Shown: positions 7,328-51,475 of the stretch, one piece after another | How the letters are laid out: each line of letters starts with the position of its first letter | How positions within the stretch are numbered: position 1 is the first letter of the stretch | Assembly: GCA_963793425.1 (NCBI GenBank) | Contig: CAWCAG010000005.1 | Location: forward strand, 768,001 to 832,000 | DNA length: 64,000 nt | Source of the DNA: an uncultured cyanobacterium | GTDB taxonomy: Bacteria; Cyanobacteriota; Cyanobacteriia; Cyanobacteriales; CAWCAG01 | Direction: 5' to 3' | Program-made: the position numbers and the translations under genes | The notes under the pieces: model-generated | What the model saw: the letters and a program-made list of their open reading frames with translations, nothing else | Databases searched by the model: none | What the model was told of the DNA's origin: nothing

Positions 7328-8773
7328 ATGAAATTCAGTATTGTTATCACAACTTATAATCGTCTGCCTTTATTAAAGCGCGCTATCGAAAAATGCTTAG
7401 CGCAAACCATTCCCTGCGAAGTTATTGTTGTAGATGATTGTTCTGATGATGGAACCCAAGATTATGTAACTACTCTCATCAAAAAAACCGGTAATAAATC
7501 CTTAATTTATTACCGTAATCCAGTTAACTTAGGACATTCCCAAAGTGTTAATGCTGGGGTAAAAATCGCTACAGGAGAATGGATTAAGTTTCTTGATGAT
7601 GACGATTATCTTGCTCCTAATTGCCTCAAAGAAATTGCCAAAGTAATCTCTTTACATCCCCAAGGGGTAATTTGTTCGGTACAAGCAGCTCAAGTAGATG
7701 AAAATGAAGTAGAAATTACGAGAACCAGACAAATCAATTCTAGTAAGGCTTTTTACATCCCTCAAGAAGATATTCACTACGGTATGCTTCTAGAAATGGT
7801 TCCTTTTGGCACTCCGGTTCAAGTTGCTTGTCGTCGAGATGCCTTCTTAGAATCGGGCGGTTGGGATTCTGGTTTGGATGCTAATTTTGATGATATAGAT
7901 TCTTGGATTAAAATTGCTCAGTTTGGGGATGCTATTTTTATTAATGAATGTTTAGCTTATCGTACTATTTGGTCTGGTGCATATAATCACAAATTCTCTT
8001 TAGAAAAGCGGCTGGAAACCAACTTATTAATTAAACAAAGCATTCATGCTTTAATACATTCTAAACACCGAAGCTATACTCCTGCTATTGAAACCATTGC
8101 TAGATATCTTAAGTTGCATTGGAGCTTAGTTGCCCTAAAACAAGTCAAATTTAGTACGGCCTTTAAATTAATGTTTCCTAACATCTTTTTCTGGTCTGCT
8201 TGGCAACTAATTTTAGGTAAAGCAGGAGAAAGCTACCGTAACCGTAACTTACATCAAATTACCATTAAGCAGGATATTGATAAGGTAGCTCAAGAACAAC
8301 AGTCCTACAGAGAAATAATCGAGCAAATCAGAAGCTATTTAAAACTGCGTTGGGGCTTCAAAGCTTTTCAAAAAGGAGAATTTTCTACAGGCATTCAAAT
8401 CGCTTTATCAGCTTTATTTTCTTCTCAAGTTTGGGGTATTACCCTAGCCGCAGCTTTTCCCAAAATTTATCAAGAAAATCTGGAATTGAAAAAGCAATTA
8501 AATCAGAATATTTTAGTAATGGAAGCAATTTGCTCCTTGCTTAACGACAAGCACCAAGAAACCCTACCCAACCTCCAGGAACTAAAGAAATACCTTAAAG
8601 TACGTCTATTTCTTTTAGCTTTCCGTGAAGGAAAAATTAGTGTAGCTATGAGGTTAGCTTTGCCAACAATTCTCTCTCCAGTTGTCTGGAAGCTATTATC
8701 TAGAATTGCGATCTTAACCCGTATTAGTAAGCAAAAACCAATTATTCGTAGATTTGTCTTATTAGAATCCTGA
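7328..8773 (+). CDS. Glycosyltransferase family 2 with a triplicated C-terminal helical module
   Basis: FSIVITTYNR, VIVVDDCSDDGT and KFLDDDD (DxD) motifs; three YLK(L/V) repeats in the C-terminal half. Confidence 0.9.
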   Translation: MKFSIVITTYNRLPLLKRAIEKCLAQTIPCEVIVVDDCSDDGTQDYVTTLIKKTGNKSLIYYRNPVNLGHSQSVNAGVKIATGEWIKFLDDDDYLAPNCLKEIAKVISLHPQGVICSVQAAQVDENEVEITRTRQINSSKAFYIPQEDIHYGMLLEMVPFGTPVQVACRRDAFLESGGWDSGLDANFDDIDSWIKIAQFGDAIFINECLAYRTIWSGAYNHKFSLEKRLETNLLIKQSIHALIHSKHRSYTPAIETIARYLKLHWSLVALKQVKFSTAFKLMFPNIFFWSAWQLILGKAGESYRNRNLHQITIKQDIDKVAQEQQSYREIIEQIRSYLKLRWGFKAFQKGEFSTGIQIALSALFSSQVWGITLAAAFPKIYQENLELKKQLNQNILVMEAICSLLNDKHQETLPNLQELKKYLKVRLFLLAFREGKISVAMRLALPTILSPVVWKLLSRIAILTRISKQKPIIRRFVLLES

Positions 8774-8800: not shown

Positions 8801-10225
8801 TTATCTAGCTAGGTTTTCTTGGCAGCGTTCTAGATAAATATGAGCGGTTTTATCTTTAGGATTTTGTGCGACACATTCTGAGAAAATAATTTCTGCTTCG
8901 ACATAATTATCTTGATGGAAAAGTAGCAACCCCTGTTCAAAACTAATTCTCGTAGCTAACTTTCCCTGGCGCACTTCAAGAGGATCGCCATCAAATACTT
9001 CATAAATACTAACCCAGTCCGATTTACCTTTCACTTTAACCCGGTCAATAATACGAATACAATAATTATTAGAGTCTTTTAATTCCAGAAAAGTATGATG
9101 GGAAATAAAAAAAGATACTCCATAACTTTCTGTTAATTCTTCAAGTCGAGCAGCTAAATTAACCGTATCGCTAATAACAGTACCGTCCATACGATTTTTT
9201 CCACCAACTGTACCCAACATCAAGGAACCTGTATTAATACCAATACCAATTTGAATGGGCGCACGTCCTGGTCTTTGCCTAGTTTGATTATAATTATTTA
9301 AAAGCTGTAACATAGTAATACCCGCAGTAACAGCATCATCAGCACTACCACTGAAAAGAGCCATAATAGCATCGCCAATATATTTATCAATGAAACCATT
9401 ATTATTAATAATTGCTGGTTCCATACGACTTAAATAAGCATTAATAAACTTAAAGCTATCCTCTGAACTCATGCTTTCAGAAAGACTAGTAAAGCCACGA
9501 ATATCAGAAAATAACACTGACATTTCCTTTTCTACAGATTCTCCTAACTCCACATCAATAATACTTTTTTTATTTAAAAATTGGAGAAACTCATGGGGGA
9601 CAAAACGTTCGTAAGCTTGGTTAAGTTTAAATAATTGGTTAGTATATTTGCGAAGCTCTAACTCAGCGTTTTTGCGTTCTGTAATATCAGCAAAAGCCGC
9701 GATCGCATAAATAATTTCTTTCTTTTCATTAAAGATTGGTGTCGCCCAAACTTCCACAGAAATAGTCTTATTTCCTTGGCGTATTTCTACATCATCAACA
9801 GCAACACTTTCTCCTTGCAAAGCCCTTAGTAAAGGTTGGCGATCGCCAGGATAAAATTCAGCTGTTTCTGATAGATAAAATTGATATACTTCTGATAGCT
9901 TCTCAGCAGTGGTTTCTGGGGCAATACCTTTACCTAGTAATTGCTCTGCTCTTTGATTCGCATAAAAAGGCTTACCCTGGGCATCAACAACAAAAACGCC
10001 TATGGGCATAGCTTCTAGAAACTGCTGTAACCTCTTCTCGCTTTCAACTAAAACCGTTTCTGCTTGTTTGTGTAATTCTGCCTCAATTGTGTCAGAATGC
10101 TCAGTAGTCGTCTCTAAGAGAATCTCCAGATCAGCTTTTTCTTGCCTTAACCCCGCAACTTCCTGACGCAAATTCTCTATCTCTAATAAGAGTTTTTCTG
10201 TAGAGGGTTGTTCTTCTTGCTGCAT
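8801..10225 (-). CDS. Class III adenylate cyclase with N-terminal coiled coil, PAS domain and C-terminal TPR-like helices
   Basis: FSDIRGFT, IDKYIGDAIMALF (ATP-specifying Lys, second metal Asp), GTVISDTVNLAARLE (class IIIb Thr, catalytic Asn/Arg); PAS segment MPIGVFVVD...YANQRAEQLLG...DITERK. Confidence 0.93.
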   Translation of the reverse strand: MQQEEQPSTEKLLLEIENLRQEVAGLRQEKADLEILLETTTEHSDTIEAELHKQAETVLVESEKRLQQFLEAMPIGVFVVDAQGKPFYANQRAEQLLGKGIAPETTAEKLSEVYQFYLSETAEFYPGDRQPLLRALQGESVAVDDVEIRQGNKTISVEVWATPIFNEKKEIIYAIAAFADITERKNAELELRKYTNQLFKLNQAYERFVPHEFLQFLNKKSIIDVELGESVEKEMSVLFSDIRGFTSLSESMSSEDSFKFINAYLSRMEPAIINNNGFIDKYIGDAIMALFSGSADDAVTAGITMLQLLNNYNQTRQRPGRAPIQIGIGINTGSLMLGTVGGKNRMDGTVISDTVNLAARLEELTESYGVSFFISHHTFLELKDSNNYCIRIIDRVKVKGKSDWVSIYEVFDGDPLEVRQGKLATRISFEQGLLLFHQDNYVEAEIIFSECVAQNPKDKTAHIYLERCQENLAR

Positions 10226-10294
10226 TGCCCAGGATAAGATTCATTTTTTTGTGTAAATTCGACTAAGCCCCTTCAGACTAGGCAATGATATATT

Positions 10295-10330
10295 TTTACC
10301 TATTACCTATTACCTATTACTTATTACTTA
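10295..10330. repeat. Heptamer tandem repeat (TATTACC/TATTACT)
   Basis: ttacc tattacc tattacc tattac ttattac tta in the gap between the STAS-like gene and the cyclase gene. Confidence 0.8.
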
Positions 10331-10343
10331 ATTACTCACTCCC

Positions 10344-10688
10344 TCATGCCCATTCTAATTCTAAATTAGGCATTAAGCGTTGAAGGTTTTTTAAAGATTT
10401 CCCCTGCCAAGGAACCTGCTTAGATCCCTGTACTACCATAGAAACATCCTTTTCCTGGCGGACTTTAATAACAAATTTTGATAAAACATTAATACCTGAA
10501 CTATTAAGAAACTGCAAGTCTTGCAAATTCAAAGTAATAATGGGAGACTTTTGTTCAAGGACTTGGTGTAGTAACTCAATAATTGGTGCATATTCTTCCA
10601 TACCACTAAGTCTTAGAGTCCCTTGACAGTTTACCGTTGCTGTAGATTGTTTATAGCAAATACTGTATTCTTTTGTCTTAATCTCCAT
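10344..10688 (-). CDS. STAS-like / SiaC-like small regulator (Slr1659 superfamily)
   Basis: LNLQDLQFLNSSGINVL resembles the phospho-acceptor loop of anti-sigma antagonists and SiaC; C-terminal PWQGKSLKNLQRLMP; strong SD GGGGGAG. Confidence 0.82.
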   Translation of the reverse strand: MEIKTKEYSICYKQSTATVNCQGTLRLSGMEEYAPIIELLHQVLEQKSPIITLNLQDLQFLNSSGINVLSKFVIKVRQEKDVSMVVQGSKQVPWQGKSLKNLQRLMPNLELEWA

Positions 10689-10703
10689 TTCTCCCCCTGT
10701 AAG

Positions 10704-11285
10704 CTATAACTTTAGCTGTACCAATGTGGTTAAAGCAACTATTTCTGGATTTTGCTGCACCGTCTCCAATTTCCAGCCCACCTTTGCCATATAATCATTG
10801 ATTATGGTTAGAAAGCCTAACCCAGAGTTGGTATCGTTGTCACCCTGAGCATTTTCTTCTAATTGCAGAATATATAATTCTTGGGGATCGTAGGTTGCTA
10901 GTTTGTTGATAAAAACTTTAAGTTTATCTTGGTATTGAGAACTAATACTATTAGTAGTAGAAAAAACCACTCTATCGCGGTGAAAATGCAAGCTAATACT
11001 GATCGGATAATCCTTTTCTTCATCATTGAACTTCATGGCATTTTCTAACAATTCATTGGCAATATAACTAACAGCACCTTTAATCTCTGCTTGATGCTCC
11101 ATCTCATTTAACTCAATTTCATTGTTAAGAAAGAAAGTGGTTAAATAGTCTCCTAAAAAATCAGCCGATAAACCATTGTTGCGCCAACGTTTCTTGATGG
11201 GAACTGAGCTAGGTGAAAATTGCAGGATCAAATATTCTTGAGTTGCAGGTAGATTGTGTCCGTAGTCTCCAAATACTTGCTTCAT
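10704..11285 (-). CDS. GHKL-fold kinase-like protein (Slr1658 / SiaB-like, DUF6272-like)
   Basis: N-box IANELLENAMKF, G-box SGLGFLTIINDY, N-terminal RWRNNGLSADFL; ATGA overlap with the upstream gene. Confidence 0.8.
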   Translation of the reverse strand: MKQVFGDYGHNLPATQEYLILQFSPSSVPIKKRWRNNGLSADFLGDYLTTFFLNNEIELNEMEHQAEIKGAVSYIANELLENAMKFNDEEKDYPISISLHFHRDRVVFSTTNSISSQYQDKLKVFINKLATYDPQELYILQLEENAQGDNDTNSGLGFLTIINDYMAKVGWKLETVQQNPEIVALTTLVQLKL

Positions 11286-13774
11286 GGTAATTCAATTATT
11301 TCTAACCCTTTTCTTTTAATTGCCACCAAAGTAATATCATCATAAACTTTTTGTTCTCCAATATATCCTTTAACATGGCTGATCACCTCAGAACAAACTT
11401 CCTCTACCGATGCAGACCAATTTTGTTGGATTACTTTACACAATCTTTCTATGCCATAGTGCAAACCCTGCTCATTTTCAGCTTCAGTAATGCCATCTGT
11501 ATAAAGTATTATTCCATCTCCTGGCCCTAACTCTACCTTTGTTTCTGCTAAGAACTCAACTACATCTTCAATTAAACCTAAAGGAAAACCTAAATCAATG
11601 GTATCAATCCGCTCAATTTCGCCATTTTGGCGTACTAAAATGACTTCTTCATGCTGTCCACTCAAGGTGAGAATACCTGCTTGGTAGTCAAGTAAACAAA
11701 GGGTAAGATTTTTTTCGGAACTCATACGTTGGACATTTTCATACACTGTCCAATTAATGGCTTCTAGGTACTTTTTGAGATCAGTCTCACCATTGGCTAA
11801 GAGGGTTCGTACAGCAGTTTGTACCATCAACATTAGTACTCCACTCTCTAATCCATGGCCGGTCACATCGCCGATACCAATTTTAATCCTGCCGTTATGA
11901 TAGATGACATCATAATAATCTCCTCCCACTTCCTGGGCCGGTTCCATGAAACCAGCTATTTCTAATTCTGGTATTTTTTTAAGTTCCTCTTGATTAGGAA
12001 GAATCATAGTTTGCAGACGGCGAGTAATATCTACTTCTGAACTGAGGCGTAGGTTTTCTTGTTGCAGTCTTTGATTAAGGGTGGTAATTTCTAAGTTAGC
12101 TTGAGCTAAAGCTTGTTGGGCTTCTTTGCGATCGCTTATATCTCGAAAAATGCCAGTGTAAAATCCCCCAGAGGCTAATTTTGCTTCTGATAAGCTAGCT
12201 TCTAAAGGTAGGGTTGAATCGTTAGCTTGCTTACCAACAACTTCATGTAAACCTACTCCTAATAAATTCTCTAAGGAAATATCTTCCGGCAATTCTAAAA
12301 GTTGATACATCGACATTCCGACTAAATTACTAAGAGGATAGCCGAAAATCACTTCTGCACTAGGATTAGCCATAATAATTTGTAAATCTAGTTTGCTGAA
12401 GGTAATGATGGCATCAGTAGCGGTTTTAAAAAGTGCTTCAGTGCGGCTTATAGCTTCTTCTAAAGCATCCATTACCTGGTTGTAGCGTTCGGCAATTAAG
12501 CCGACTTCGGTAAAGGGTTCTAGGGGAACACGCAAGCTTAAATCTTGGGTTTGAGCTTGCAAATCCATAACCTTAAATAAGTCATGAATTTCTGTTTTAG
12601 CACGATGTTCTGATATATTTAGACCAACTTTTTCTTGTTCTAAGGAAACTCGTAAAGGGAAGAAGCGGTTAAGAGTGCGTAGTAACAAGTAACTTAAACC
12701 AAAAGACCAGACAAAACAGACAAAAATCCCCAACAATTGTACTAATATTTGGTTTCCTTTCGTTAACCCCGTAGCTAACAAATCCGCTTTACCAAACAAA
12801 GCCACAGCCAAAGTTCCCCACACCCCAGCCCCGGCATGAACGGCGATCGCATCTACTGCATCATCAATACGCCAACGCCGAAGCCAATAGGAAACAAGTA
12901 TAGTAACTCCTGCACCAATTGAGCCAATAATTACCGCTTCTGCAGTGTTGACGACATTACAGTTAGCCGTAATCGCCACCAATCCGGCTAGGGAACCATT
13001 AATCAATATTTCTACTTCCGGGATTTTGTGCTGCTGCCAACCAATTATTCCGGCGGTAATCATCCCTGCCACCCCAGCTAAGACAGTGTTAACAATGATG
13101 CCAGGGACTTGCTCATTTAATTCTAAGGTACTGCCACCATTGAAGCCTAACCAGCCGATCCACAATAACATGGCTCCTAAAACAGAAAATTGTAAATTGG
13201 AGCCGTGAATCTTACGGGGCCTTCCTTCAGGGGGAAATCTGCCAGTGCGAGAACCAATAACGAATAAAGCGGCTAAACCTACCCAACCTCCTACGCTATG
13301 AACAACTGTAGAACCAGCAAAATCTAAAAAACCAAGTTGTTTTAACCACCCGGCTTGGTTCCAACTCCAATGGCCAAAAAAAGGATAAATTGTACTGGAA
13401 ACTAAAACTGTGGTGGTTAGGTAGGCCCCAAACTTCATGCGCTCCGCCACTGCCCCTGAAACGATGGTGGCAGTAGTGCTACAAAACATGGCTTGGAAGA
13501 GGAAGAAGGCAGCTTTTTGAGCTTGGGAGTCTAAATTGACCAAAAAGTCTGTTGAGCCAACCCAGCCCCCTTGGGAAACCCCGAACATCCAGGCATAACC
13601 AAATAGCCAAAAGCAGGCTACGGAAATGCCGAAATCTGCTAAGTTTTTCACCGCAACGTTAATACTATTTTTGGAGCGGGTTAACCCAGACTCCAAACAC
13701 ATAAATCCTGGTTGCATTAAAAACACTAAACCAGCAGAAACCAGGAGCCAGAGGATGTTGATAGTTGTCTCCAT
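11282..13774 (-). CDS. amt: Ammonium transporter (Amt) fused to a HAMP-like linker, PAS domain, coiled coil and SpoIIE/PP2C phosphatase
   Basis: Amt motifs MQPGF..LESG, FQAMF, SGAVAER, HWSW, DFAGSTVVH, WLGFNGGS, DDAVDAIAVH, E..GLNISEH. PAS segment TATDAIITF...ANPSAE.IFGY. PP2C motifs EVGGDYYD, GDVTGHG, YTDGITEA, DDITLV. Confidence 0.93.
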   Translation of the reverse strand: METTINILWLLVSAGLVFLMQPGFMCLESGLTRSKNSINVAVKNLADFGISVACFWLFGYAWMFGVSQGGWVGSTDFLVNLDSQAQKAAFFLFQAMFCSTTATIVSGAVAERMKFGAYLTTTVLVSSTIYPFFGHWSWNQAGWLKQLGFLDFAGSTVVHSVGGWVGLAALFVIGSRTGRFPPEGRPRKIHGSNLQFSVLGAMLLWIGWLGFNGGSTLELNEQVPGIIVNTVLAGVAGMITAGIIGWQQHKIPEVEILINGSLAGLVAITANCNVVNTAEAVIIGSIGAGVTILVSYWLRRWRIDDAVDAIAVHAGAGVWGTLAVALFGKADLLATGLTKGNQILVQLLGIFVCFVWSFGLSYLLLRTLNRFFPLRVSLEQEKVGLNISEHRAKTEIHDLFKVMDLQAQTQDLSLRVPLEPFTEVGLIAERYNQVMDALEEAISRTEALFKTATDAIITFSKLDLQIIMANPSAEVIFGYPLSNLVGMSMYQLLELPEDISLENLLGVGLHEVVGKQANDSTLPLEASLSEAKLASGGFYTGIFRDISDRKEAQQALAQANLEITTLNQRLQQENLRLSSEVDITRRLQTMILPNQEELKKIPELEIAGFMEPAQEVGGDYYDVIYHNGRIKIGIGDVTGHGLESGVLMLMVQTAVRTLLANGETDLKKYLEAINWTVYENVQRMSSEKNLTLCLLDYQAGILTLSGQHEEVILVRQNGEIERIDTIDLGFPLGLIEDVVEFLAETKVELGPGDGIILYTDGITEAENEQGLHYGIERLCKVIQQNWSASVEEVCSEVISHVKGYIGEQKVYDDITLVAIKRKGLEIIELP

Positions 13775-13906
13775 AATGAGTCGGGGAATTTATTGTTAGA
13801 GTGCAACTAGTTTAAGCACAATTATCTCTGTTGGGAAGCTAAGCTAGTCTCAAGATAATAGTTTTTTGGAAATTCCCCGCTAATTATCTTTCATCTCACT
13901 CAAGTT

Positions 13907-13930
13907 GAACATTAAGCGAACGTGATCGCA
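13907..13930 (+). promoter_or_regulatory. 24-nt motif shared with 48220-48243; CRP-like GCGA-N6-TCGC core
   Basis: GAACATTAAGCGAACGTGATCGCA versus GAACATTAAGCGAACGCGATCACA, 22 of 24 identical. Confidence 0.45.
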
Positions 13931-14021
13931 GACGAAGGTGTTCGACTATAGAAATAAGGAAGGGGTGGTTTATGGTAACAAAAATAATGGGGACAACTAG
14001 GTACTACTAGTCTATTAATTC

Positions 14022-16841
14022 ATGCAAATTTCAACTTCTTGTCTCAAACTACCTGCCCTGGAACAAATTATTAATTCCAATCCTTTAGTTGTACCTCCTA
14101 ATGCCTCAGTTAGAGATGTGATGACTTTTCTGCTCCAGGGGCAAAAAGGTACTCGTGGTGAATTTTGTGCTGTTGTTGAAGAGCAAGGGAAAATCCTAGG
14201 AATATTGGCTCAACAAGATGTTATTAAGTTAGCAACATTGGAAAAACGTTGGGAATTTTTTACTGTTGCAGATGTAGTAGAGAAAAACCATGTTGTTTTA
14301 GCTGAGGCTCAATATAATGATGTTTTTCAAGTTTGTAGTTTGTTGCGCCAATATGAAACTGACTACTTACTAGTTGAGGATCAACAAGGTAGCTTGAAAG
14401 GAGTGATAACCTCTGAGTTAATCCTCAATTCTTTGCAGGGAAGTCATATTTGGCAACAGGGTTTTGTTGGTGAGGTAATGAATACTGATGATTTCAGCGT
14501 TACTCCCCAAACTTCATTGCTTCAAGCTGCTCGATTAATGTCTGAAAACGAGAGAGATTGGGTGATTATTGCTCAAGATGTTCAACCTTTGGGATTGGTG
14601 ACAACTAAAGATATTATCCAGCACCAACTTAATAGCTCTGATTTGGCACAAGTCCAAGCTTTGGCAGTAATGAATACTCTCCCATCAAAAGTTTTAGCAG
14701 AAGATTCTTTGGATTCAGCATGGCAGAAAATACAGCAAAATAGTTGGCAACCATTATTAGTTACAAATAGTCAAGGAGCATTACTAGGAACTTTAACTCA
14801 AGCTAGTTTTTTACGATGCCTTGAACCCAGGGAAATGTATAGTAAACTTGAGTTGTTATACCGAGAAAATCAACAGCTTAGAAGCGAAAAAGCTCAGCTT
14901 TTAAAATCTCAATCTCATGAAACAGAAGCAGAATTAGAAGGAGCAAAAGACCAACTTCAAGCCGTTTTAGATGCTATGCCGGGAACTATTTCTTGGATTG
15001 ACTCTGATTTATGTTATTTAGGAGTTAACAAACAATTAGCTAGTCTTTTTAATAAACCGACAGAAGGTTTTGTTGGTAAAAAAATTGGCTTTTTTAAAGA
15101 AAACGATGAATTTGGTTATCACATGGAACGTTTCTTTGCTAGTTCTCAGCAAGAATCTTCCTTAGAAGTAGAAATGCAAGTTGGTGACTCATTTAATAAT
15201 TATTTAGTTGTTACTCGTAAGTATAATCATAATCGAGCGGCTGTGGCTGTAGGGGTTAACATAACTGACCGCAAAAAGACAGAGATGGCTTTGGTTAAAA
15301 GTGCTGCTACTAATCGCGCTCTAATTAATTCTATTCCTGATTTAATGTTCTGCTTTAATCATGATGGTATATTCCTAGATTATAAAGCAGCAAAAGATTA
15401 TGAAGCAGCAGTTTCTCCAGAAGATTTTTTAGGTAAAAGAGTAAATGAAGTGCTGCCACCACAAATATCTCAGTCAGTTTTGCAATGTATAAAGCGGGCT
15501 TTACAAACCAAAGAAATACAGTCTTTTGAATATCAGTTACCTCGAAGTTATCAGGATAACAAGATCAGAGATTGGGAAGCCCGTCTTTTTGTTAGCAATG
15601 AAAATGAAGTTATGGCTATTATAAGAGATATTACAGAACGCAAACGTTCGGAAACTGAATTACGTCGTCAAAGTCTTAAATCTCGACTATTCGCTGAAAT
15701 TAGCTTGAAAATTCGCCAATCTTTGCAATTAGAAGAAATCTTACAAACCACCGTTACAGAAGTACAGCAGATATTTCAAGTAGACAGAGTTTTAATTTAT
15801 CATTGCTTAGCTTCTGGGCTAGATAAAGTTATTATGGAGGAGGTTTTATTAGGTTGGCCAAAAACTTTAGGGATGTCTTTTCCCCAAGAAGTATCCTTTC
15901 AAAATCACCAAGATAGTTGGAGACAAGGAGAAGTTTTAGCTATTGCTGATTTGGAGAAAGAATATGGGAAAACTTCACCGTCTATAGTCGCTTTCTGGCA
16001 AAATTGGTTTGTTAAAGCGAAGTTGGTTGTACCTATTTTACAACAAGAAAAACTTTGGGGCTTAATCATAGTTCATCAATGTTCTAGTTGCCGACATTGG
16101 AGTAATTTTGAGACAGAACTATTACAGCAGCTAGCTGATCAAGTAGGTATTGCTATTTCTCAAGCCCAACTTTTAAAGGAACAGCAAGAAAGTGAAGCGA
16201 TGATTCGAGCATCTCTACAAGAGAAAGAGGTTTTGTTAAAAGAGATTCACCATCGAGTTAAGAATAATCTCCAGGTCATTTCTAGCCTTTTTTCTTTACA
16301 GTCTTATTATCTTGAAGATTCTAAAGCTTTGCGAGTACTTGAAGATAGTCAAAGTAGAGTCAAAGCCATGGCTTTAATTCATGAAAAAATCTATAACTCT
16401 CAAGATTTGTCTAAGGTCAATTTTGCTAAATATATCCAAGATTTGGCAAACTATTTATTTCATGCTTACGAACCTAACCCCCAAGTAGAGTTAGAAATTG
16501 ATGTCGAGCCTGTCTCCCTAAATTTAGATACGGCTACTCCTTGTGGACTGTTGATCAACGAAGTTATTTCTAATGCTCTTAAATATGCTTTTCCTAATAA
16601 AAAGAAAGGTAGGATCTGGATTAAGCTTTATTATTTAAACCAGGAAAAAATGGTTTTAGAAATAGGAGATAATGGGGTTGGCTTTCCTCCAAACCTTGAT
16701 TTGGAGGAAACGGAATCATTGGGTCTTCAGTTAGTAAAAGATTTAGCTCAGCAGTTAAAAGGTAAACTAGAAATAAATTGTCACCAAGGAACGCGATTGA
16801 AAATCACATTTTCTGAATTACAATACCGGAGACGAATGTAA
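14022..16841 (+). CDS. Sensor histidine kinase: 4 CBS - 2 PAS - cyanobacteriochrome-like GAF - HisKA_2/HATPase
   Basis: CBS repeats (G.ILGIL...D; LGLVTTKDI); PAS ends NITDRKK and DITERK; GAF RQSLQLEEILQTTV.EV...DRVLIY...VKAKLVVPIL...LWGL..HQC; H-box LKEIHHRVKNNLQVISSL; NEVISNALKYAF, DNGVG, SLGLQLV. Confidence 0.93.
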   Translation: MQISTSCLKLPALEQIINSNPLVVPPNASVRDVMTFLLQGQKGTRGEFCAVVEEQGKILGILAQQDVIKLATLEKRWEFFTVADVVEKNHVVLAEAQYNDVFQVCSLLRQYETDYLLVEDQQGSLKGVITSELILNSLQGSHIWQQGFVGEVMNTDDFSVTPQTSLLQAARLMSENERDWVIIAQDVQPLGLVTTKDIIQHQLNSSDLAQVQALAVMNTLPSKVLAEDSLDSAWQKIQQNSWQPLLVTNSQGALLGTLTQASFLRCLEPREMYSKLELLYRENQQLRSEKAQLLKSQSHETEAELEGAKDQLQAVLDAMPGTISWIDSDLCYLGVNKQLASLFNKPTEGFVGKKIGFFKENDEFGYHMERFFASSQQESSLEVEMQVGDSFNNYLVVTRKYNHNRAAVAVGVNITDRKKTEMALVKSAATNRALINSIPDLMFCFNHDGIFLDYKAAKDYEAAVSPEDFLGKRVNEVLPPQISQSVLQCIKRALQTKEIQSFEYQLPRSYQDNKIRDWEARLFVSNENEVMAIIRDITERKRSETELRRQSLKSRLFAEISLKIRQSLQLEEILQTTVTEVQQIFQVDRVLIYHCLASGLDKVIMEEVLLGWPKTLGMSFPQEVSFQNHQDSWRQGEVLAIADLEKEYGKTSPSIVAFWQNWFVKAKLVVPILQQEKLWGLIIVHQCSSCRHWSNFETELLQQLADQVGIAISQAQLLKEQQESEAMIRASLQEKEVLLKEIHHRVKNNLQVISSLFSLQSYYLEDSKALRVLEDSQSRVKAMALIHEKIYNSQDLSKVNFAKYIQDLANYLFHAYEPNPQVELEIDVEPVSLNLDTATPCGLLINEVISNALKYAFPNKKKGRIWIKLYYLNQEKMVLEIGDNGVGFPPNLDLEETESLGLQLVKDLAQQLKGKLEINCHQGTRLKITFSELQYRRRM

Positions 16842-16843
16842 CC

Positions 16844-17938
16844 ATGAAACCAACAAAAATTCTCATTGTTGAAGATGAGATTATCACCGCTAGGGATATA
16901 TCTTTAAAATTGCAAAAGCTTGATTATCAGGTAGTTGGTATTGCTGATTCTGGAAATGTTGCCCTGGAAAAAGTAGCTGAATATGAACCAGATTTAGTGC
17001 TGATGGATATAGTTTTGCAGGGGGATATAGATGGTATAGAAGTGGCTCAACAAGTTCGCCATTCCTTCAATATTCCTGTGATTTATTTGACTGCCTATGT
17101 TGATCAAGAAACTTTACAAAGAGCTAAAATAACTGAACCTTTTGGTTATATTCTCAAACCTTTTAAAGGGCAAGAATTACGTACCCATATCGAAATTGCT
17201 TTGTATAAACATAAGTCAGAAATAGAAATCCGTCGTGCTTTAGCTAAGCAAAAAGAATTAAATGAGCTTAAATCTCGATTTATTACCCTTGCTTCCCATG
17301 AATTTCGTACTCCTTTAACAGCGATTCTCGGCTCTACTGAATTGCTGAGACATTATGGAGAAAGTTTACCACAAAATAAAATAAATCATTATCTTGAAAA
17401 AATCAAAGCTACTATTAAAGGAATGACAAATACTTTAGATAGTATTTTAACTCTTAGTCAAGCAGAAGCGGATAAAATTATTTTTAAACCAGTCCCTTTG
17501 AATTTGGGTGAAGTTTGTCAAGATGTGGTTAGAGAGTTTCAAGGAGATGAGGAGGAAGAGAAAAGGATTGTTTTTATTGATAAATGTCTATTAAATTCTG
17601 TTTTAGCAGATAAGAATTTAATTCGTTATATTATGACTAATTTATTAGTTAATGCGATTAAATATTCTCCTAAAAATAGCAAAATATTGTTTTCTTTAAT
17701 TTGCCAACAGGAAGAAGCTATTTTGACAATTGAAGATAGGGGAATTGGTATCCCATCAGAAGAGTTGGATAAGCTGTTTGATTCTTTTTATCGGGCTAGC
17801 AATGTAGGAGATATTCCAGGAACTGGTTTAGGTTTATCTGTAGTTAAGCAATTAGTTGATTTGCATGGTGGCAATATAAAAGTAGAAAGCGAGTTAGCAA
17901 AAGGAACAACTTTTACAGTTGCTTTACCGTTAGGGTAG
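16844..17938 (+). CDS. Hybrid response regulator receiver - histidine kinase
   Basis: KILIVEDE, PDLVLMDI, YILKPF receiver; ASHEFRTPL H-box; NLLVNAIKYS, DRGIGI, GTGLGL. Starts 2 nt after the upstream stop. Confidence 0.93.
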   Translation: MKPTKILIVEDEIITARDISLKLQKLDYQVVGIADSGNVALEKVAEYEPDLVLMDIVLQGDIDGIEVAQQVRHSFNIPVIYLTAYVDQETLQRAKITEPFGYILKPFKGQELRTHIEIALYKHKSEIEIRRALAKQKELNELKSRFITLASHEFRTPLTAILGSTELLRHYGESLPQNKINHYLEKIKATIKGMTNTLDSILTLSQAEADKIIFKPVPLNLGEVCQDVVREFQGDEEEEKRIVFIDKCLLNSVLADKNLIRYIMTNLLVNAIKYSPKNSKILFSLICQQEEAILTIEDRGIGIPSEELDKLFDSFYRASNVGDIPGTGLGLSVVKQLVDLHGGNIKVESELAKGTTFTVALPLG

Positions 17939-48868: not shown

Positions 48869-51475
48869 TCACTTTGATGTCATAGTCCAAACTCCATCCC
48901 AATCTCCATCTGGAGGCTCAGCTAGGAAATGCTGACAGCGCTCCATATGTAGCTTGGCTGCTTTATTATCTTTATCTATACCCATAACTTGGGCAAACTT
49001 ACCTACTGCACCAACAAAGTCGCGGCTGAGGTAAAGCTTTCTACCTTCATGATAAAATTCAACAATTTGCTCTTGTTGGGGGGAAAGGGTATCTCCTTTT
49101 TTACCTAGCAATTCGTAAACAGATACAGGTAAGTTCTTTCCTTTAACTTTAATACGATCCAACTCTCTTACAATTACTTGGTCGCGACAAGGTTCATAAG
49201 TATTTTCGCTAATAATAATATCGCAGCCATATTGCTTACTGGCGCTTTCTAAGCGGGAGCTTAAGTTTACTCCATCACCAATGGCAGTGAACTCCATCCG
49301 CTTACTAGAACCGATGTTACCACTGATTACTGAGCCAGAGTTGATCCCAATACCAATACGGATAGGAACCTTATTTTCTTTTAACCTTGCTTCATTGAAT
49401 ATTTCTAAGCGTTCACGCATTTCTAAGGCCGTTTGTACAGCTTTCCAGGCATGATCTTCTAAGGGTAAAGGAGAGCCGAAAACGGCCATAATTGCGTCGC
49501 CGATATATTTATCTAAGGTTCCTTTATGCTTAAATACTGCCTCAACCATACTTTCAAAGTAACCGTTGAGCATACCCACAACTTCTTCAGCTTTGAGTTT
49601 CTCTGTCAAGCTGGTGTAGCTACGAATGTCAGAAAAGAGGACGGTTACTTCTTTGCGATCGCCCCCTAATTTCGCATCCCCTAGTTTGAGTAACTCTTCA
49701 GCTAATTCTTGGGTCATGTAACGGTACATAGTACTCTTGAGGCGCTTTTCATCAGAAATATCCTCCATAACCACTAAAGCCCCATAAACATTGCTAGCAT
49801 CCCTAGCATCGCTGATGGAGTTAATGGAGAGGTTAACGCTATGTTCTTCTTCGTCTGCGAGTAAGGTACGATCTGGATAATACTGTTCTCGACTAGAGCG
49901 ATCGTCACTAGGAGATAGGGCTTTATTAAACCAGCCTGCAAATTTCCCTTCTTTGATATTAATCAAATCAACGACCTTTTGCCCTTCTAGAGCTTCTAGA
50001 TCGTCAAAGCCTAATAAATATTTTGCTCTTTCATTAGCAGCGATAATACGTCCTGCTTTATCTGTAGAAATCACTCCGTTAGTTAAACTCCGCAAGATAT
50101 CCCTCTGCATTTGTTCTTGCTGTTTAACTTGGTTGAAAAGCTTAGCATTTTGTAGGGCTACCCCAGCTTGAATGTTGAAAGCTTTCATGAATTCTTGGTC
50201 ACTGCCATTAAAACTCGCTTTCCAACATTCGGGGGCTTCAGGCCAGGTATCAGGATCGTAAGGAGGATATTCTCCTTGCCGCTTTTTGTTTAATAGTTGG
50301 GTGACACCAATTAATTTACCGTCGGCATTGAACACAGGCATACAGAGAAGACTACAGGTACGATATCCTGTTTTCGGATCAGTTTTCTTAGCATTTTCTG
50401 CATCGGGATGGTTATAAAGGTCAAAACCAATGTTGAGAATTTCTCCTGTTTCTCCTACTTTCCCTGCAAATCCGACACCAACGGAAACTCGGATTTCTTT
50501 TAAAGACCCGCCGGGCATGGGGATCTTTGTCCAGAGGTCGTTTTTATCTTCATCAATTAACCAAAGTGTGCTACGGTCAGCACTCATCAGCTTTTTGGCT
50601 GCATCCATCACTGTTCTTAAGGTGGCATCTAAATCTAAGCTGCCCTTACTCAAGGAGTTAGTGGCCTCAATTAAAGCATTGGCTGCCCGCTGTCTTTGAG
50701 TCGCTTTATAAAAAGAGCGGGAAGATTCTAATATGAGTTGAATTGAGGTGGCAAATTCATTAAATAATTTAACGTCTTCCTCTGTAAATCCTTCTTTGTT
50801 AACCTTCTCGTCTAAAGGAGCATCAGGAGTTACATCAGGCTGTAATTTATTAATTAACTGCACTACAGCCACTAGTTTTTGCTGGGTGTCGAGTAGAGGC
50901 AAAACTAGCATCGTATAGGTACGATAGCCATTTTTTTTGTCGAATTTTTTCGCTGAGGCTGAGCGGTAGTCGTCATAAAAATCGTAGGGGATGTTGACAA
51001 CTTCTTTAGATTCAGCTACTGCTCCGGCAATACCTATACCAATAGGAATACGAATTTCTATTGGTTTACCATCTTCTCCCTTCGCCACAATAGAAACTAG
51101 TTCATCTTCATCATCATCTAATAAGTAAATGGTAGTTCGATCAGCCCCTAACAATTCTCCAGTTTTCAAGGAGATGGACTGCAACATTTCATCAAGAATG
51201 GCATCAAAACCCTGGCTATCCAGCACATTATCTAGCATGGATAGGGTTTGATTCACGATACGCAGTTTGTCTTCTACGCCATCAACAACTTCTTCAAAAG
51301 ATTCTTTACCTAAAGGAGCAAGGAAGGTCGAAAAACTGCCTCCTGTTGTGGCTAAGGAACTGCCAGAAGAGGATTGATTGACATTATGATGATTTTCGCC
51401 GCCTACGACTTCAGCTTCTAGGGTTTGACCGTCGTGTGGTTTTAAAGATGAGGATTGAGAAGATGCAGCAGTCAT
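48869..51475 (-). CDS. cyaB: GAF-GAF-PAS class III adenylate cyclase (CyaB type)
   Basis: Two GAF domains with ADRT/ST, GIAG/GFAG, GYRT and NK...F...D; PAS segment LTNGVISTD; FSDIRSYT, LDKYIGDAIMAVFG, FTAIGDGVNLSSRLE; C-terminal WDGVW.M.SK. Confidence 0.9.
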   Translation of the reverse strand: MTAASSQSSSLKPHDGQTLEAEVVGGENHHNVNQSSSGSSLATTGGSFSTFLAPLGKESFEEVVDGVEDKLRIVNQTLSMLDNVLDSQGFDAILDEMLQSISLKTGELLGADRTTIYLLDDDEDELVSIVAKGEDGKPIEIRIPIGIGIAGAVAESKEVVNIPYDFYDDYRSASAKKFDKKNGYRTYTMLVLPLLDTQQKLVAVVQLINKLQPDVTPDAPLDEKVNKEGFTEEDVKLFNEFATSIQLILESSRSFYKATQRQRAANALIEATNSLSKGSLDLDATLRTVMDAAKKLMSADRSTLWLIDEDKNDLWTKIPMPGGSLKEIRVSVGVGFAGKVGETGEILNIGFDLYNHPDAENAKKTDPKTGYRTCSLLCMPVFNADGKLIGVTQLLNKKRQGEYPPYDPDTWPEAPECWKASFNGSDQEFMKAFNIQAGVALQNAKLFNQVKQQEQMQRDILRSLTNGVISTDKAGRIIAANERAKYLLGFDDLEALEGQKVVDLINIKEGKFAGWFNKALSPSDDRSSREQYYPDRTLLADEEEHSVNLSINSISDARDASNVYGALVVMEDISDEKRLKSTMYRYMTQELAEELLKLGDAKLGGDRKEVTVLFSDIRSYTSLTEKLKAEEVVGMLNGYFESMVEAVFKHKGTLDKYIGDAIMAVFGSPLPLEDHAWKAVQTALEMRERLEIFNEARLKENKVPIRIGIGINSGSVISGNIGSSKRMEFTAIGDGVNLSSRLESASKQYGCDIIISENTYEPCRDQVIVRELDRIKVKGKNLPVSVYELLGKKGDTLSPQQEQIVEFYHEGRKLYLSRDFVGAVGKFAQVMGIDKDNKAAKLHMERCQHFLAEPPDGDWDGVWTMTSK

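Follow-up and report, generated by a model that had tools for sequence, protein, structure and literature searches.

In a window of 64,000 nucleotides (nt) from an uncultured cyanobacterium of the order Cyanobacteriales (GenBank assembly GCA_963793425.1, contig CAWCAG010000005.1, positions 768,001 to 832,000), the list of open reading frames (ORFs) contains four co-oriented minus-strand ORFs of 830, 193, 114 and 474 amino acids (aa), here called genes 1 to 4 (Table 1). They encode a fusion of an ammonium-transporter-type (Amt) module to a PP2C phosphatase, a kinase-like protein, a small STAS/SiaC-like protein and a class III adenylate cyclase. A preliminary description of the locus had proposed that ammonium bound at the Amt module sets phosphatase activity, hence the phosphorylation of the small protein and hence the synthesis of cyclic AMP (cAMP). 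The layout given there, four co-oriented genes with an ATGA overlap and gaps of 15 and 118 nt, was borne out by the ORF list and by reading of the junctions: the TGA stop of gene 1 and the ATG of gene 2 overlap as ATGA, the 15-nt spacer between genes 2 and 3 contains a GGGGGAG run, and 118 nt separate genes 3 and 4. For this last gap, a promoter/terminator scan calls neither element, and RNA folding is no better than for shuffled sequences (z -0.56), with no stable hairpin; the gap before the cyclase is compatible with read-through, which is not proof of it. The corresponding spacer in the genome of a sister species (G414) is 66 nt long, and its last ~30 nt are conserved with the window. Tandem heptamer repeats (GTAATAG/GTAATAA) at 10270-10330 on the minus strand explain most of the difference between the 118- and 66-nt gaps.

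Table 1. Features of the four-gene cluster and its surroundings (window coordinates).
Feature	Position	Strand	Basis
Gene 1: Amt (ammonium-receptor type) - helical linker - PAS - coiled coil - PP2C/SpoIIE fusion, 830 aa	11282..13774	-	ORF, Pfam, NCBIfam, PDB relatives
Amt module, aa 1-400, with N1/N2 signature Q21...E28...N44..D47-F48...T103..S106	12575..13774	-	regular expression of the published signature
PAS domain of the fusion, aa 444-556	12107..12445	-	Pfam PAS_9, TIGR00229
PP2C/SpoIIE phosphatase domain, aa 627-821, four Asp-bearing motifs	11312..11896	-	Pfam SpoIIE 1.4e-38; Rv1364c/SiaA alignment
Gene 2: slr1658-family kinase-like protein (DUF6272, GHKL anti-sigma-kinase fold), 193 aa	10704..11285	-	NF052618, fold model
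Gene 3: slr1659-family STAS/SiaC-like phospho-switch protein, 114 aa	10344..10688	-	NF047705, fold model
Ser63 codon, predicted phospho-acceptor; invariant N62-S63 loop, N-terminus of helix 2	10500..10502	-	alignments, model
118-nt spacer with GTAATAG/GTAATAA heptamer repeats	10226..10343	-	direct reading
Gene 4: leader - PAS - stalk - class III adenylate cyclase - C-terminal helical tail, 474 aa	8801..10225	-	ORF, Pfam, CyaB 3r5g
Cyclase N-terminal leader, aa 8-62, heptad coiled coil + DLEILLETTTEH-D--E-EL motif, proposed docking site	10040..10204	-	leader HMM, alignments
Cyclase homology domain (CHD), aa 233-403, with D241, D285, K281, T349, N356, R360	9017..9529	-	Pfam, CyaB alignment
247-nt divergent intergenic region upstream of the cluster, presumed promoter region (role inferred)	13775..14021	.	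ORF list, promoter scan

The product of gene 1 begins with an Amt domain (Pfam Ammonium_transp, aa 8-393, E 8e-123), followed by a PAS domain and a SpoIIE/PP2C domain (E 1e-38; PF07228, 133 bits against a cut-off of 25), so that PAS and PP2C stand behind the Amt domain as the C-terminal cytoplasmic transducer typical of the ammonium-receptor (AmR) class. The four Asp-bearing motifs of the phosphatase, whose Asp residues are presumably metal-binding, are conserved and align with those of Rv1364c (3ke6) and SiaA (6k4e), in agreement with the earlier statement that the metal motifs are intact. The closest solved relatives of the Amt module are Sd-Amt1 (8qj3/8qpf, 2e-119) and Ks-Amt5 (6eu6, 6e-89), and in the PDB search chains of E. 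coli AmtB match no better than about 1e-41. According to the available parts of PMC11152129 and PMC5764959, Sd-Amt1 and Ks-Amt5 are ammonium receptors in which two ammonium ions at the N1/N2 site drive a fused diguanylate cyclase or histidine kinase. The signature of this site, QX6EX15NX2D[F/T]X54-60TX2[S/T] as given in the available part of PMC11152129, is complete in the fusion, from Q21 to S106, and missing from both standalone Amts of the genome from which the window comes (the home genome). With characterised receptors as closest solved relatives and the signature present, the Amt module fits the ammonium-sensor type suggested for it. The 'HAMP-like' segment named in the preliminary description stood only in part: Pfam HAMP gives no match on the gene 1 product, while the Sd-Amt1 alignment extends through residue 438 into the Sd-Amt1 helical linker and PF00672 (HAMP) is present in some homologous fusions.

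The signature is necessary and not sufficient, because its sequence cluster (cluster 2) also includes single-domain Amts that transport, as stated in the available part of PMC11152129; moreover, all pore motifs of the Amt module are kept, as in Ks-Amt5, and the PAS domain sits between Amt and PP2C. These points would suit a working transporter rather than a receptor. In that case the PAS domain (responding to redox, light or a metabolite) or the flux of transport would set the phosphatase, and external ammonium would not be its direct cue. We regard this as improbable: the two proven receptors are far ahead of transporters among the solved relatives of the module, the two standalone Amts can serve uptake, and in other cyanobacteria histidine kinases and cyclases also carry this Amt-PAS head. 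The fusion occurs widely: the best 120 fusion homologues listed are mostly cyanobacterial Amt-PAS-PP2C proteins, plus Beggiatoa, and also include Amt-PAS-histidine kinase and Amt-PAS-PAS-cyclase fusions. The strict N1/N2 pattern is not kept in the Amt-PP2C fusions of genus g186 (loci L114-L116, L128, L130, L131), where in L114 the D-F/T pair reads D-L, and of genus g60 (L120-L123, L129), where in L120, L121 and L129 the spacer is apparently one residue shorter. Beyond cyanobacteria, Amt-PAS proteins of 1122-1461 aa, in which the strict pattern also failed, occur in Chloroflexaceae (L099 and L103, both with a separate PP2C gene two genes downstream) and in Gemmatimonadaceae (L110).

A comparison of genes 2 and 3 with hidden Markov models (HMMs) of SiaB, SiaC and Slr1658/Slr1659, proposed in the preliminary description, placed them over the cut-offs of the slr1658 and slr1659 families, with remote similarity to SiaB, SiaC and STAS. 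Gene 2 scores 271 bits with NF052618 (slr1658_cyano, cut-off 200), 243 with NF047703 (cut-off 100) and 31 with DUF6272 (cut-off 26.6); its match to the SiaB family kinase model NF038262 (25 bits, E 1e-5) lies below the cut-off of 85, and HATPase_c_2 is not reached at the Pfam cut-off. Gene 3 matches NF047705 (slr1659_superfam) over its full length (1-111) with 170 bits against a cut-off of 100, and remains below the gathering cut-offs of STAS PF01740 (20.9 against 22.6 bits) and of SiaC PF09345 (18.2 against 24.5 bits, E 0.002). Gene 1, for its part, matches SiaA NF038263 in the PP2C part only (54 bits, far below the cut-off of 700). On their sequences we therefore class genes 2 and 3 as members of the slr1658/slr1659 families and as remote relatives of SiaB/SiaC.

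Predicted structures brought the kinship closer, with SiaC and SiaB among the top fold matches, as expected from the earlier kinase and STAS-like assignment. The model of the switch protein (predicted local distance difference test, pLDDT, 94), in which helix 64-78 begins directly after S63, matches SiaC first (6k4f, E 1e-4; 7e6g_F, TM score 0.71; range 0.64-0.71) and then RsfB, SpoIIAA and RsbV. The kinase model (pLDDT 85.5) matches UsfX first and SiaB second (6kko_A, E 5e-5, TM 0.51/0.56), followed by SpoIIAB, RsbW and further GHKL kinases. A structure atlas agrees, grouping DUF6272 with HATPase_c_2 look-alikes and returning STAS- and SiaC-labelled clusters. As judged from the models, the fold kinship of the two proteins to SiaB/SiaC and to anti-sigma kinase/STAS pairs is clear. 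The kinase, switch and cyclase motifs quoted in the preliminary description are all found in the translations, and they are invariant or nearly so across the family alignments: in 53 switch proteins this holds for N62, S63 and G65, with N62 and S63 invariant, and in 55 kinases N77, E78, L79, N82 and G157 are invariant. S63 takes the place of T68 in the N67-T68-S69 loop of SiaC and presumably also that of Ser58, the phospho-serine of SpoIIAA.

Gene 4 has a PAS domain (aa 65-185) and a Guanylate_cyc domain (E 2e-18; PF00211, 66.9 bits against a cut-off of 21.9), not the GGDEF domain of the SiaABCD output enzyme. Its best solved relative is CyaB (3r5g, 3e-28). The residues D241, K281, D285, T349, N356 and R360 align with CyaB and are invariant in 9 orthologues, which upholds the earlier claim of a cyclase with all catalytic residues. 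From the class III cyclase literature we take D241 and D285 to bind metal, K281 and T349 to bind substrate, and N356 and R360 to act on the transition state; the IIIb label is likewise our assumption. Gene 4 thus has the set of residues to be expected in an active adenylate cyclase.

Of 401 genomes sampled from the phylum, 72 have the slr1658 family over cut-off. Our survey of slr1658/slr1659 pairs comprised all over-cut-off loci in one genome per genus for 40 genera, with two genomes for genera g3 and g44, giving 57 loci; Pfam was run on 133 co-oriented neighbours at positions -2, -1, +2 and +3, and the kinase genes of L127 and L078 were located by tblastn. In the window the two genes are adjacent and co-oriented with the kinase first, and nearly all of the 57 loci have the same order. 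The adjacent PP2C proteins carry very different heads (CHASE, CHASE2, CHASE3, dCache, HAMP, HK-REC, REC with CheB, ETR1_N, STK-AAA-GAF and Amt), and the pair is a portable module. Its co-oriented neighbours include class III (CHD) cyclases in 16/57 loci and 11/40 genera, GGDEF proteins of ~290 aa in 10/57 loci and MscS-like channels in 6/57. With ~35 cyclase genes per genome, we estimate that chance would account for cyclase adjacency in a few per cent of cases at most.

What connects many of the cyclases and GGDEF proteins among these neighbours is a leader of ~55 residues, which in gene 4 spans aa 8-62 and in which a heptad coiled coil leads into DLEILLETTTEH·D··E·EL; it is not covered by any Pfam or NCBIfam model. 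The leader also heads GGDEF proteins adjoining the pairs, cyclases of both CHD types, and some PAS-only and small proteins. A leader HMM matches 33 of 1269 neighbourhood ORFs, namely 31 of the 236 co-oriented ORFs at positions -2 to +4 of an slr1658 kinase gene against 2 of 871 elsewhere, counts that test specificity only because the HMM was trained on that ORF set; both exceptions adjoin an slr1659 switch gene. All adjacent GGDEF proteins carry the leader (11/11), many of them twice, and it is found on the CHD protein in 11/16 CHD loci. At the level of whole genomes, with the two lists compared by hand, the leader is present in 58 of 72 slr1658-positive genomes against 1 of 329 negative ones, and this one exception (G319) belongs to a genus whose other 18 genomes hold the slr1658 family. 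In a database census, 143 of 192 word-sharing candidates matched, and the leader was also found on PAS-GAF histidine kinases and HK-REC-cyclases. We propose that the leader marks the clients of the slr1658/slr1659 switch and may be its docking site. The link between cyclase and switch drawn in the preliminary description is strengthened accordingly by a leader that is typical of slr1658/slr1659 neighbours and that co-occurs with slr1658 genome by genome.

MscS proteins adjoining the pairs have no leader, and the MscS-linked pairs form one group on a concatenated kinase and switch tree, which together suggest that the switch has clients of a second kind, docked in another way. The channel genes without leader follow the pairs in L038, L045, L055, L061 and L063 (and L044); in L061 (genome G201), a urea transporter-EF-hand gene lies directly upstream of genes for an ETR1_N (ethylene-receptor-like)-PP2C protein, the kinase, two switch proteins and the MscS-like channel. 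Small proteins of 160-190 aa dominated by the leader follow the pair in L046, L065 and L080, where the PP2C carries a receiver domain and has a CheB neighbour.

For the Amt-PP2C fusion itself, an initial search with a single fusion protein gave 22 loci with 2 full-length fusions and was replaced by a genome-wide search, which, over 401 genomes of the order, listed 37 full-length fusions and another truncated at a contig end, in 13 genera and 4 families. A survey of 25 fusion loci, the window included, found the trio of Amt-PP2C, kinase and switch genes adjacent in 19/25 loci and 11/13 genera; the pair does not adjoin the fusion in g60, g196, Limnospira (L090) and Lyngbya (L091). The cyclase completes the trio in three loci: the window, the sister species (L112), with a fusion 94% identical to that of the window and the 66-nt gap, and a genome of another family (G563, L127), with the order Amt-PP2C / PP2C / kinase / switch / cyclase. 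On the kinase and switch tree, the nearest relative of the window pair outside its own genus is that of L127. The 13 Amt-linked pairs are clustered on this tree (4 label changes against 11.9 in shuffles, 0/500 as low), and a single clade of them is not rejected (approximately unbiased test, p-AU 0.44). On synteny, the preliminary description is supported in that the sister species and one genome of another family have the same gene order, with the limit that the cyclase stands by the trio in 2/13 genera only. Where no cyclase is adjacent, the client is likely a GGDEF enzyme. In family f4 the trio is followed by a gene for a class I lysyl-tRNA synthetase or by one on the opposite strand. Of the six sampled genomes of this family, five contain a single pair and a single leader gene; in each of the six, the leader heads a compact GGDEF protein whose gene lies elsewhere.

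Several observations weigh against reading the four genes as one unit. The cyclase adjoins the Amt-PP2C trio in just 3/25 fusion loci, and the home genome (5.28 Mb) has 35 CHD matches. A six-frame search of the same genome gives two significant leader matches, the gene 4 cyclase and a 782-aa PAS-only protein (P0121; G000 contig C7 123735-126083, minus strand; L152:736-3084) with the leader at aa ~230-283. This second protein has no enzyme domain and no kinase/switch pair nearby, and could be a second client or an adaptor. Five further genomes have 1-3 leader genes each, and over the six genomes, home genome included, 7/13 leader genes adjoin a pair and 6/13 do not. The leader HMM was, as said, trained on the ORFs in which it was counted, the N-terminal half of the leader is a generic coiled coil, and a leader profile run against the PDB matches generic coiled coils only, without detecting SiaD. 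The type of cyclase adds no argument either. Relatives of the CHD with its C-terminal tail, at 58-69% identity, end many large proteins, the home genome holds at least 6 such copies at 61-64% identity, and the cyclases adjacent to pairs form no supported clade in a star-like, unresolved CHD tree. We had considered the CHD-plus-tail type as a cyclase subfamily dedicated to the switch, and dropped it because the module is common and the tree lacks a supported clade.

With so many CHD genes, a second leader protein in the genome, 14/72 slr1658-positive genomes lacking the leader, and a cyclase that sits 118 nt behind the trio and accompanies it in so few genera, gene 4 could be a bystander ruled by its own PAS domain, with the trio acting on the PAS-only protein of contig C7 or on some other partner. 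We find this hard to credit, and give it little weight: the leader of this cyclase is otherwise almost confined to neighbours of such pairs and to genomes having them, the gap carries no terminator or promoter call, and the arrangement recurs in a different family.

With moderate confidence, we read the four genes as a single signalling unit: a partner switch that takes its input from an ammonium receptor and delivers cAMP, and whose biochemical steps and sign are inferred. The computed basis of this reading is the gene order, the family memberships, the folds, the intactness of the catalytic and receptor motifs, and the genomic linkage between trio, leader and clients. The cluster probably converts outside ammonium into a cAMP signal, because a receptor-type Amt-phosphatase, a kinase, a switch protein and a tag-bearing cyclase are joined in it. 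In the proposed chain, external ammonium would bind the membrane Amt module at its N1/N2-type receptor site, and the helical linker, PAS domain and coiled coil would relay the state of the Amt to the fused cytoplasmic PP2C domain, altering its activity. The slr1658-family GHKL kinase would phosphorylate the slr1659-family STAS/SiaC-like protein at Ser63, and the PP2C domain would strip the phosphate from it. The unphosphorylated switch protein could then dock on the N-terminal leader of the PAS-cyclase and hold its coiled coil as a parallel dimer, activating a class III enzyme whose active sites form in the dimer. We propose this chain because the parts are those of SiaABCD and the cyclase residues are present; the shared parts are the PP2C, the GHKL kinase, the SiaC/STAS-fold protein with its invariant N-S-S loop, and clients in which one or two leader repeats precede a domain that has to dimerise. 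In SiaABCD, as described in the available part of PMC8457831, SiaC that is not phosphorylated attaches to the coiled-coil stalk of SiaD at two repeated motifs, which stabilises the active dimer; phosphorylation of T68 blocks this. The parallel between the leader and the SiaD stalk concerns a working mode that the two may share, not sequence homology. The sign of the response, likely ammonium present, phosphatase on, switch protein free and cAMP up, is drawn by analogy with Sd-Amt1, Ks-Amt5 and SiaABCD. As far as sequences can tell, the route from ammonium through phosphatase and switch protein to cAMP given in the preliminary description is thus supported, with every computational check it proposed favourable.

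A second set of points against this chain concerns its likeness to SiaABCD. The Sia HMMs all score far below their cut-offs, a profile of the 55 kinases matches no PDB chain and hence not SiaB, and in the PDB a profile built from the 53 switch proteins finds SpoIIAA (E 0.002), aligned at the serine loop, but not SiaC; single-sequence PDB searches with the two proteins do not reach SiaB/SiaC either. In an Rsb-type arrangement, the slr1658 kinase itself would bind the leader and hold the cyclase inactive, and the cyclase would be freed because the dephosphorylated slr1659 protein sequesters the kinase; the sign would be the same and the contacts would differ. In favour of this arrangement, the kinase model matches the anti-sigma factors UsfX, SpoIIAB and RsbW as well as it does SiaB, the antagonists RsfB, SpoIIAA and RsbV match the switch protein almost as closely as SiaC does, its sequence profile finds SpoIIAA and not SiaC, and the genomic evidence ties the leader to the pair, not to the switch protein in particular. 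Nevertheless, we consider such wiring unlikely, if less so than the two alternatives weighed above. SiaC is the first fold match of the switch protein, and the leader is present twice in many GGDEF clients, which recalls the two motifs to which SiaC binds on the SiaD stalk. In the characterised switches acting on nucleotide cyclases, SiaC-SiaD, HsbA-HsbD and BgrV-BgrR, the enzyme is bound by the STAS-like protein (as cited in the available part of PMC8457831).

Cyanobacteria are thought to sense their nitrogen status internally, via 2-oxoglutarate, PII and NtcA. To our knowledge, the signals driving the many cyanobacterial adenylate cyclases are mostly unknown, and the locus provides a candidate route from external ammonium to cAMP that can be tested directly. 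More tentatively, as a possibility somewhat short of probable, we hypothesise that the leader is a portable docking tag by which one slr1658/slr1659 pair commands any tagged enzyme, and that the Amt-phosphatase turns external ammonium into cAMP (in this genus and in G563) or into c-di-GMP (in f4), independently of 2-oxoglutarate, PII and NtcA. Amt receptors and SiaABCD-type switches were already known; what is new in the locus is the pairing of input and output (Amt and cAMP) and the client tag that makes the wiring predictable. A literature search found no description of an Amt-phosphatase fusion, of a partner switch controlling a class III cyclase or of the leader, although subscription papers and some supplements may say more. 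If the proposal is true, phosphatases join the known transducers of Amt-type receptors as a third kind, cAMP becomes an output of SiaABCD-type switches, whose clients can then be recognised by a tag, and gene 4 would be the first class III adenylate cyclase under partner-switch control. The leader could also serve as a simple sequence rule by which switch clients are found in any genome, including clients encoded at a distance from their switch.

Genes on the opposite strand flank the cluster on both sides, a family-2 glycosyltransferase (7328..8773) and a CBS-PAS-GAF-HisKA_2 histidine kinase (14022..16841). Divergently from the cluster, the plus strand at 14022-17938 encodes this CBS-CBS-PAS-GAF-HisKA_2 kinase and a REC-HisKA-HATPase hybrid kinase that starts 2 nt past its stop. 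Upstream of the cluster, the promoter/terminator scan gives weak consensus matches only, fewer than in shuffled sequences. No sigma factor gene lies within or adjoining the cluster between 7328 and 17938. A further class III cyclase domain is found in the window at 49133-49654 on the minus strand, inside an 870-aa open frame.

Among known systems, SiaABCD of Pseudomonas aeruginosa has the same gene order and logic, with a sensor-PP2C, a small GHKL kinase, a STAS-like phosphoprotein and a nucleotide cyclase; the N-S-S loop of the window protein is placed where SiaC has N67-T68-S69, and at its N-terminus the client carries a coiled-coil element, comparable to the SiaD stalk to which SiaC binds. 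On the other hand, the window proteins fall far below the Sia HMM cut-offs (SiaA 54/700, SiaB 25/85 and SiaC 18.2/24.5 bits), the predicted acceptor is Ser where SiaC has Thr, the sensor is an Amt where SiaA has a transmembrane (TM)-HAMP head, the output is a class III adenylate cyclase where SiaD is a GGDEF enzyme, and the leader has no detectable sequence similarity to SiaD. With Sd-Amt1 (Amt-HAMP-GGDEF, Shewanella denitrificans) and Ks-Amt5 (Amt-histidine kinase, Kuenenia), the fusion shares the full N1/N2 signature and a C-terminal cytoplasmic transducer. It differs in that the transducer is a PP2C, and because this would feed a separate kinase/phosphoprotein pair, the signal would pass a phospho-switch before it reaches the enzyme. 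The available parts of the Sd-Amt1 and Ks-Amt5 papers hold no mention of phosphatase or class III cyclase fusions, and the supplement, as far as available, no match for SpoIIE, PP2C or the Pfam identifiers.

Genes 2 and 3 belong to the families named after the Synechocystis type locus slr1657-slr1658-slr1659, whose GGDEF/kinase/switch layout matches surveyed loci such as L043; unlike the window, it has a GGDEF client and no adjacent PP2C or Amt. We take Sll0537 to be Amt3. A 2015 network paper groups Slr1657-1660 with Sll0537 and Sll0536. Slr1657 is listed as 'XXX-GGDEF' in a table of a partly available source, and Slr1658 is known, from the available part of PMC7555055, by a mutant phenotype only, poor recovery from iron limitation with pgr5 over-expression. 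The RsbU/RsbV/RsbW and SpoIIE/SpoIIAA/SpoIIAB switches share with the cluster a SpoIIE-family PP2C, the GHKL Ser kinase fold and the STAS fold with an aligned serine loop. They differ in that the window cluster has no sigma factor gene, the hallmark of the classical anti-sigma arrangement, that STAS and HATPase_c_2 are not reached at Pfam cut-offs in its proteins, and that its clients are nucleotide cyclases. Nostoc hcyA-D was considered as a precedent and set aside, being a classical RsbUVW-type switch in whose description, as far as available, the mentions of adenylate cyclase refer to two-hybrid assays.

Finally, the one-polypeptide Amt-PAS-PAS-cyclase fusions of Okeania, Dapis, Limnothrix and Phormidium, which are uncharacterised, share with gene 1 the Amt head with its N1/N2 signature, and that of Limnothrix shares with gene 4 the same CHD-plus-tail type, but phosphatase, kinase and switch protein are all lacking from them. 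An intact copy, a 1141-aa Amt-...-cyclase ORF, is present in the sister species, and the home genome has a decayed remnant only (G000 contig C9, about 245267-246300). In this remnant an open frame encodes no more than Amt residues ~1-218, and the C-terminal half of a type-A cyclase domain comes after it in another frame. With their direct link from Amt to cAMP synthesis, these fusions, judged by their domains, independently show this Amt head apparently wired to cAMP production in related cyanobacteria.

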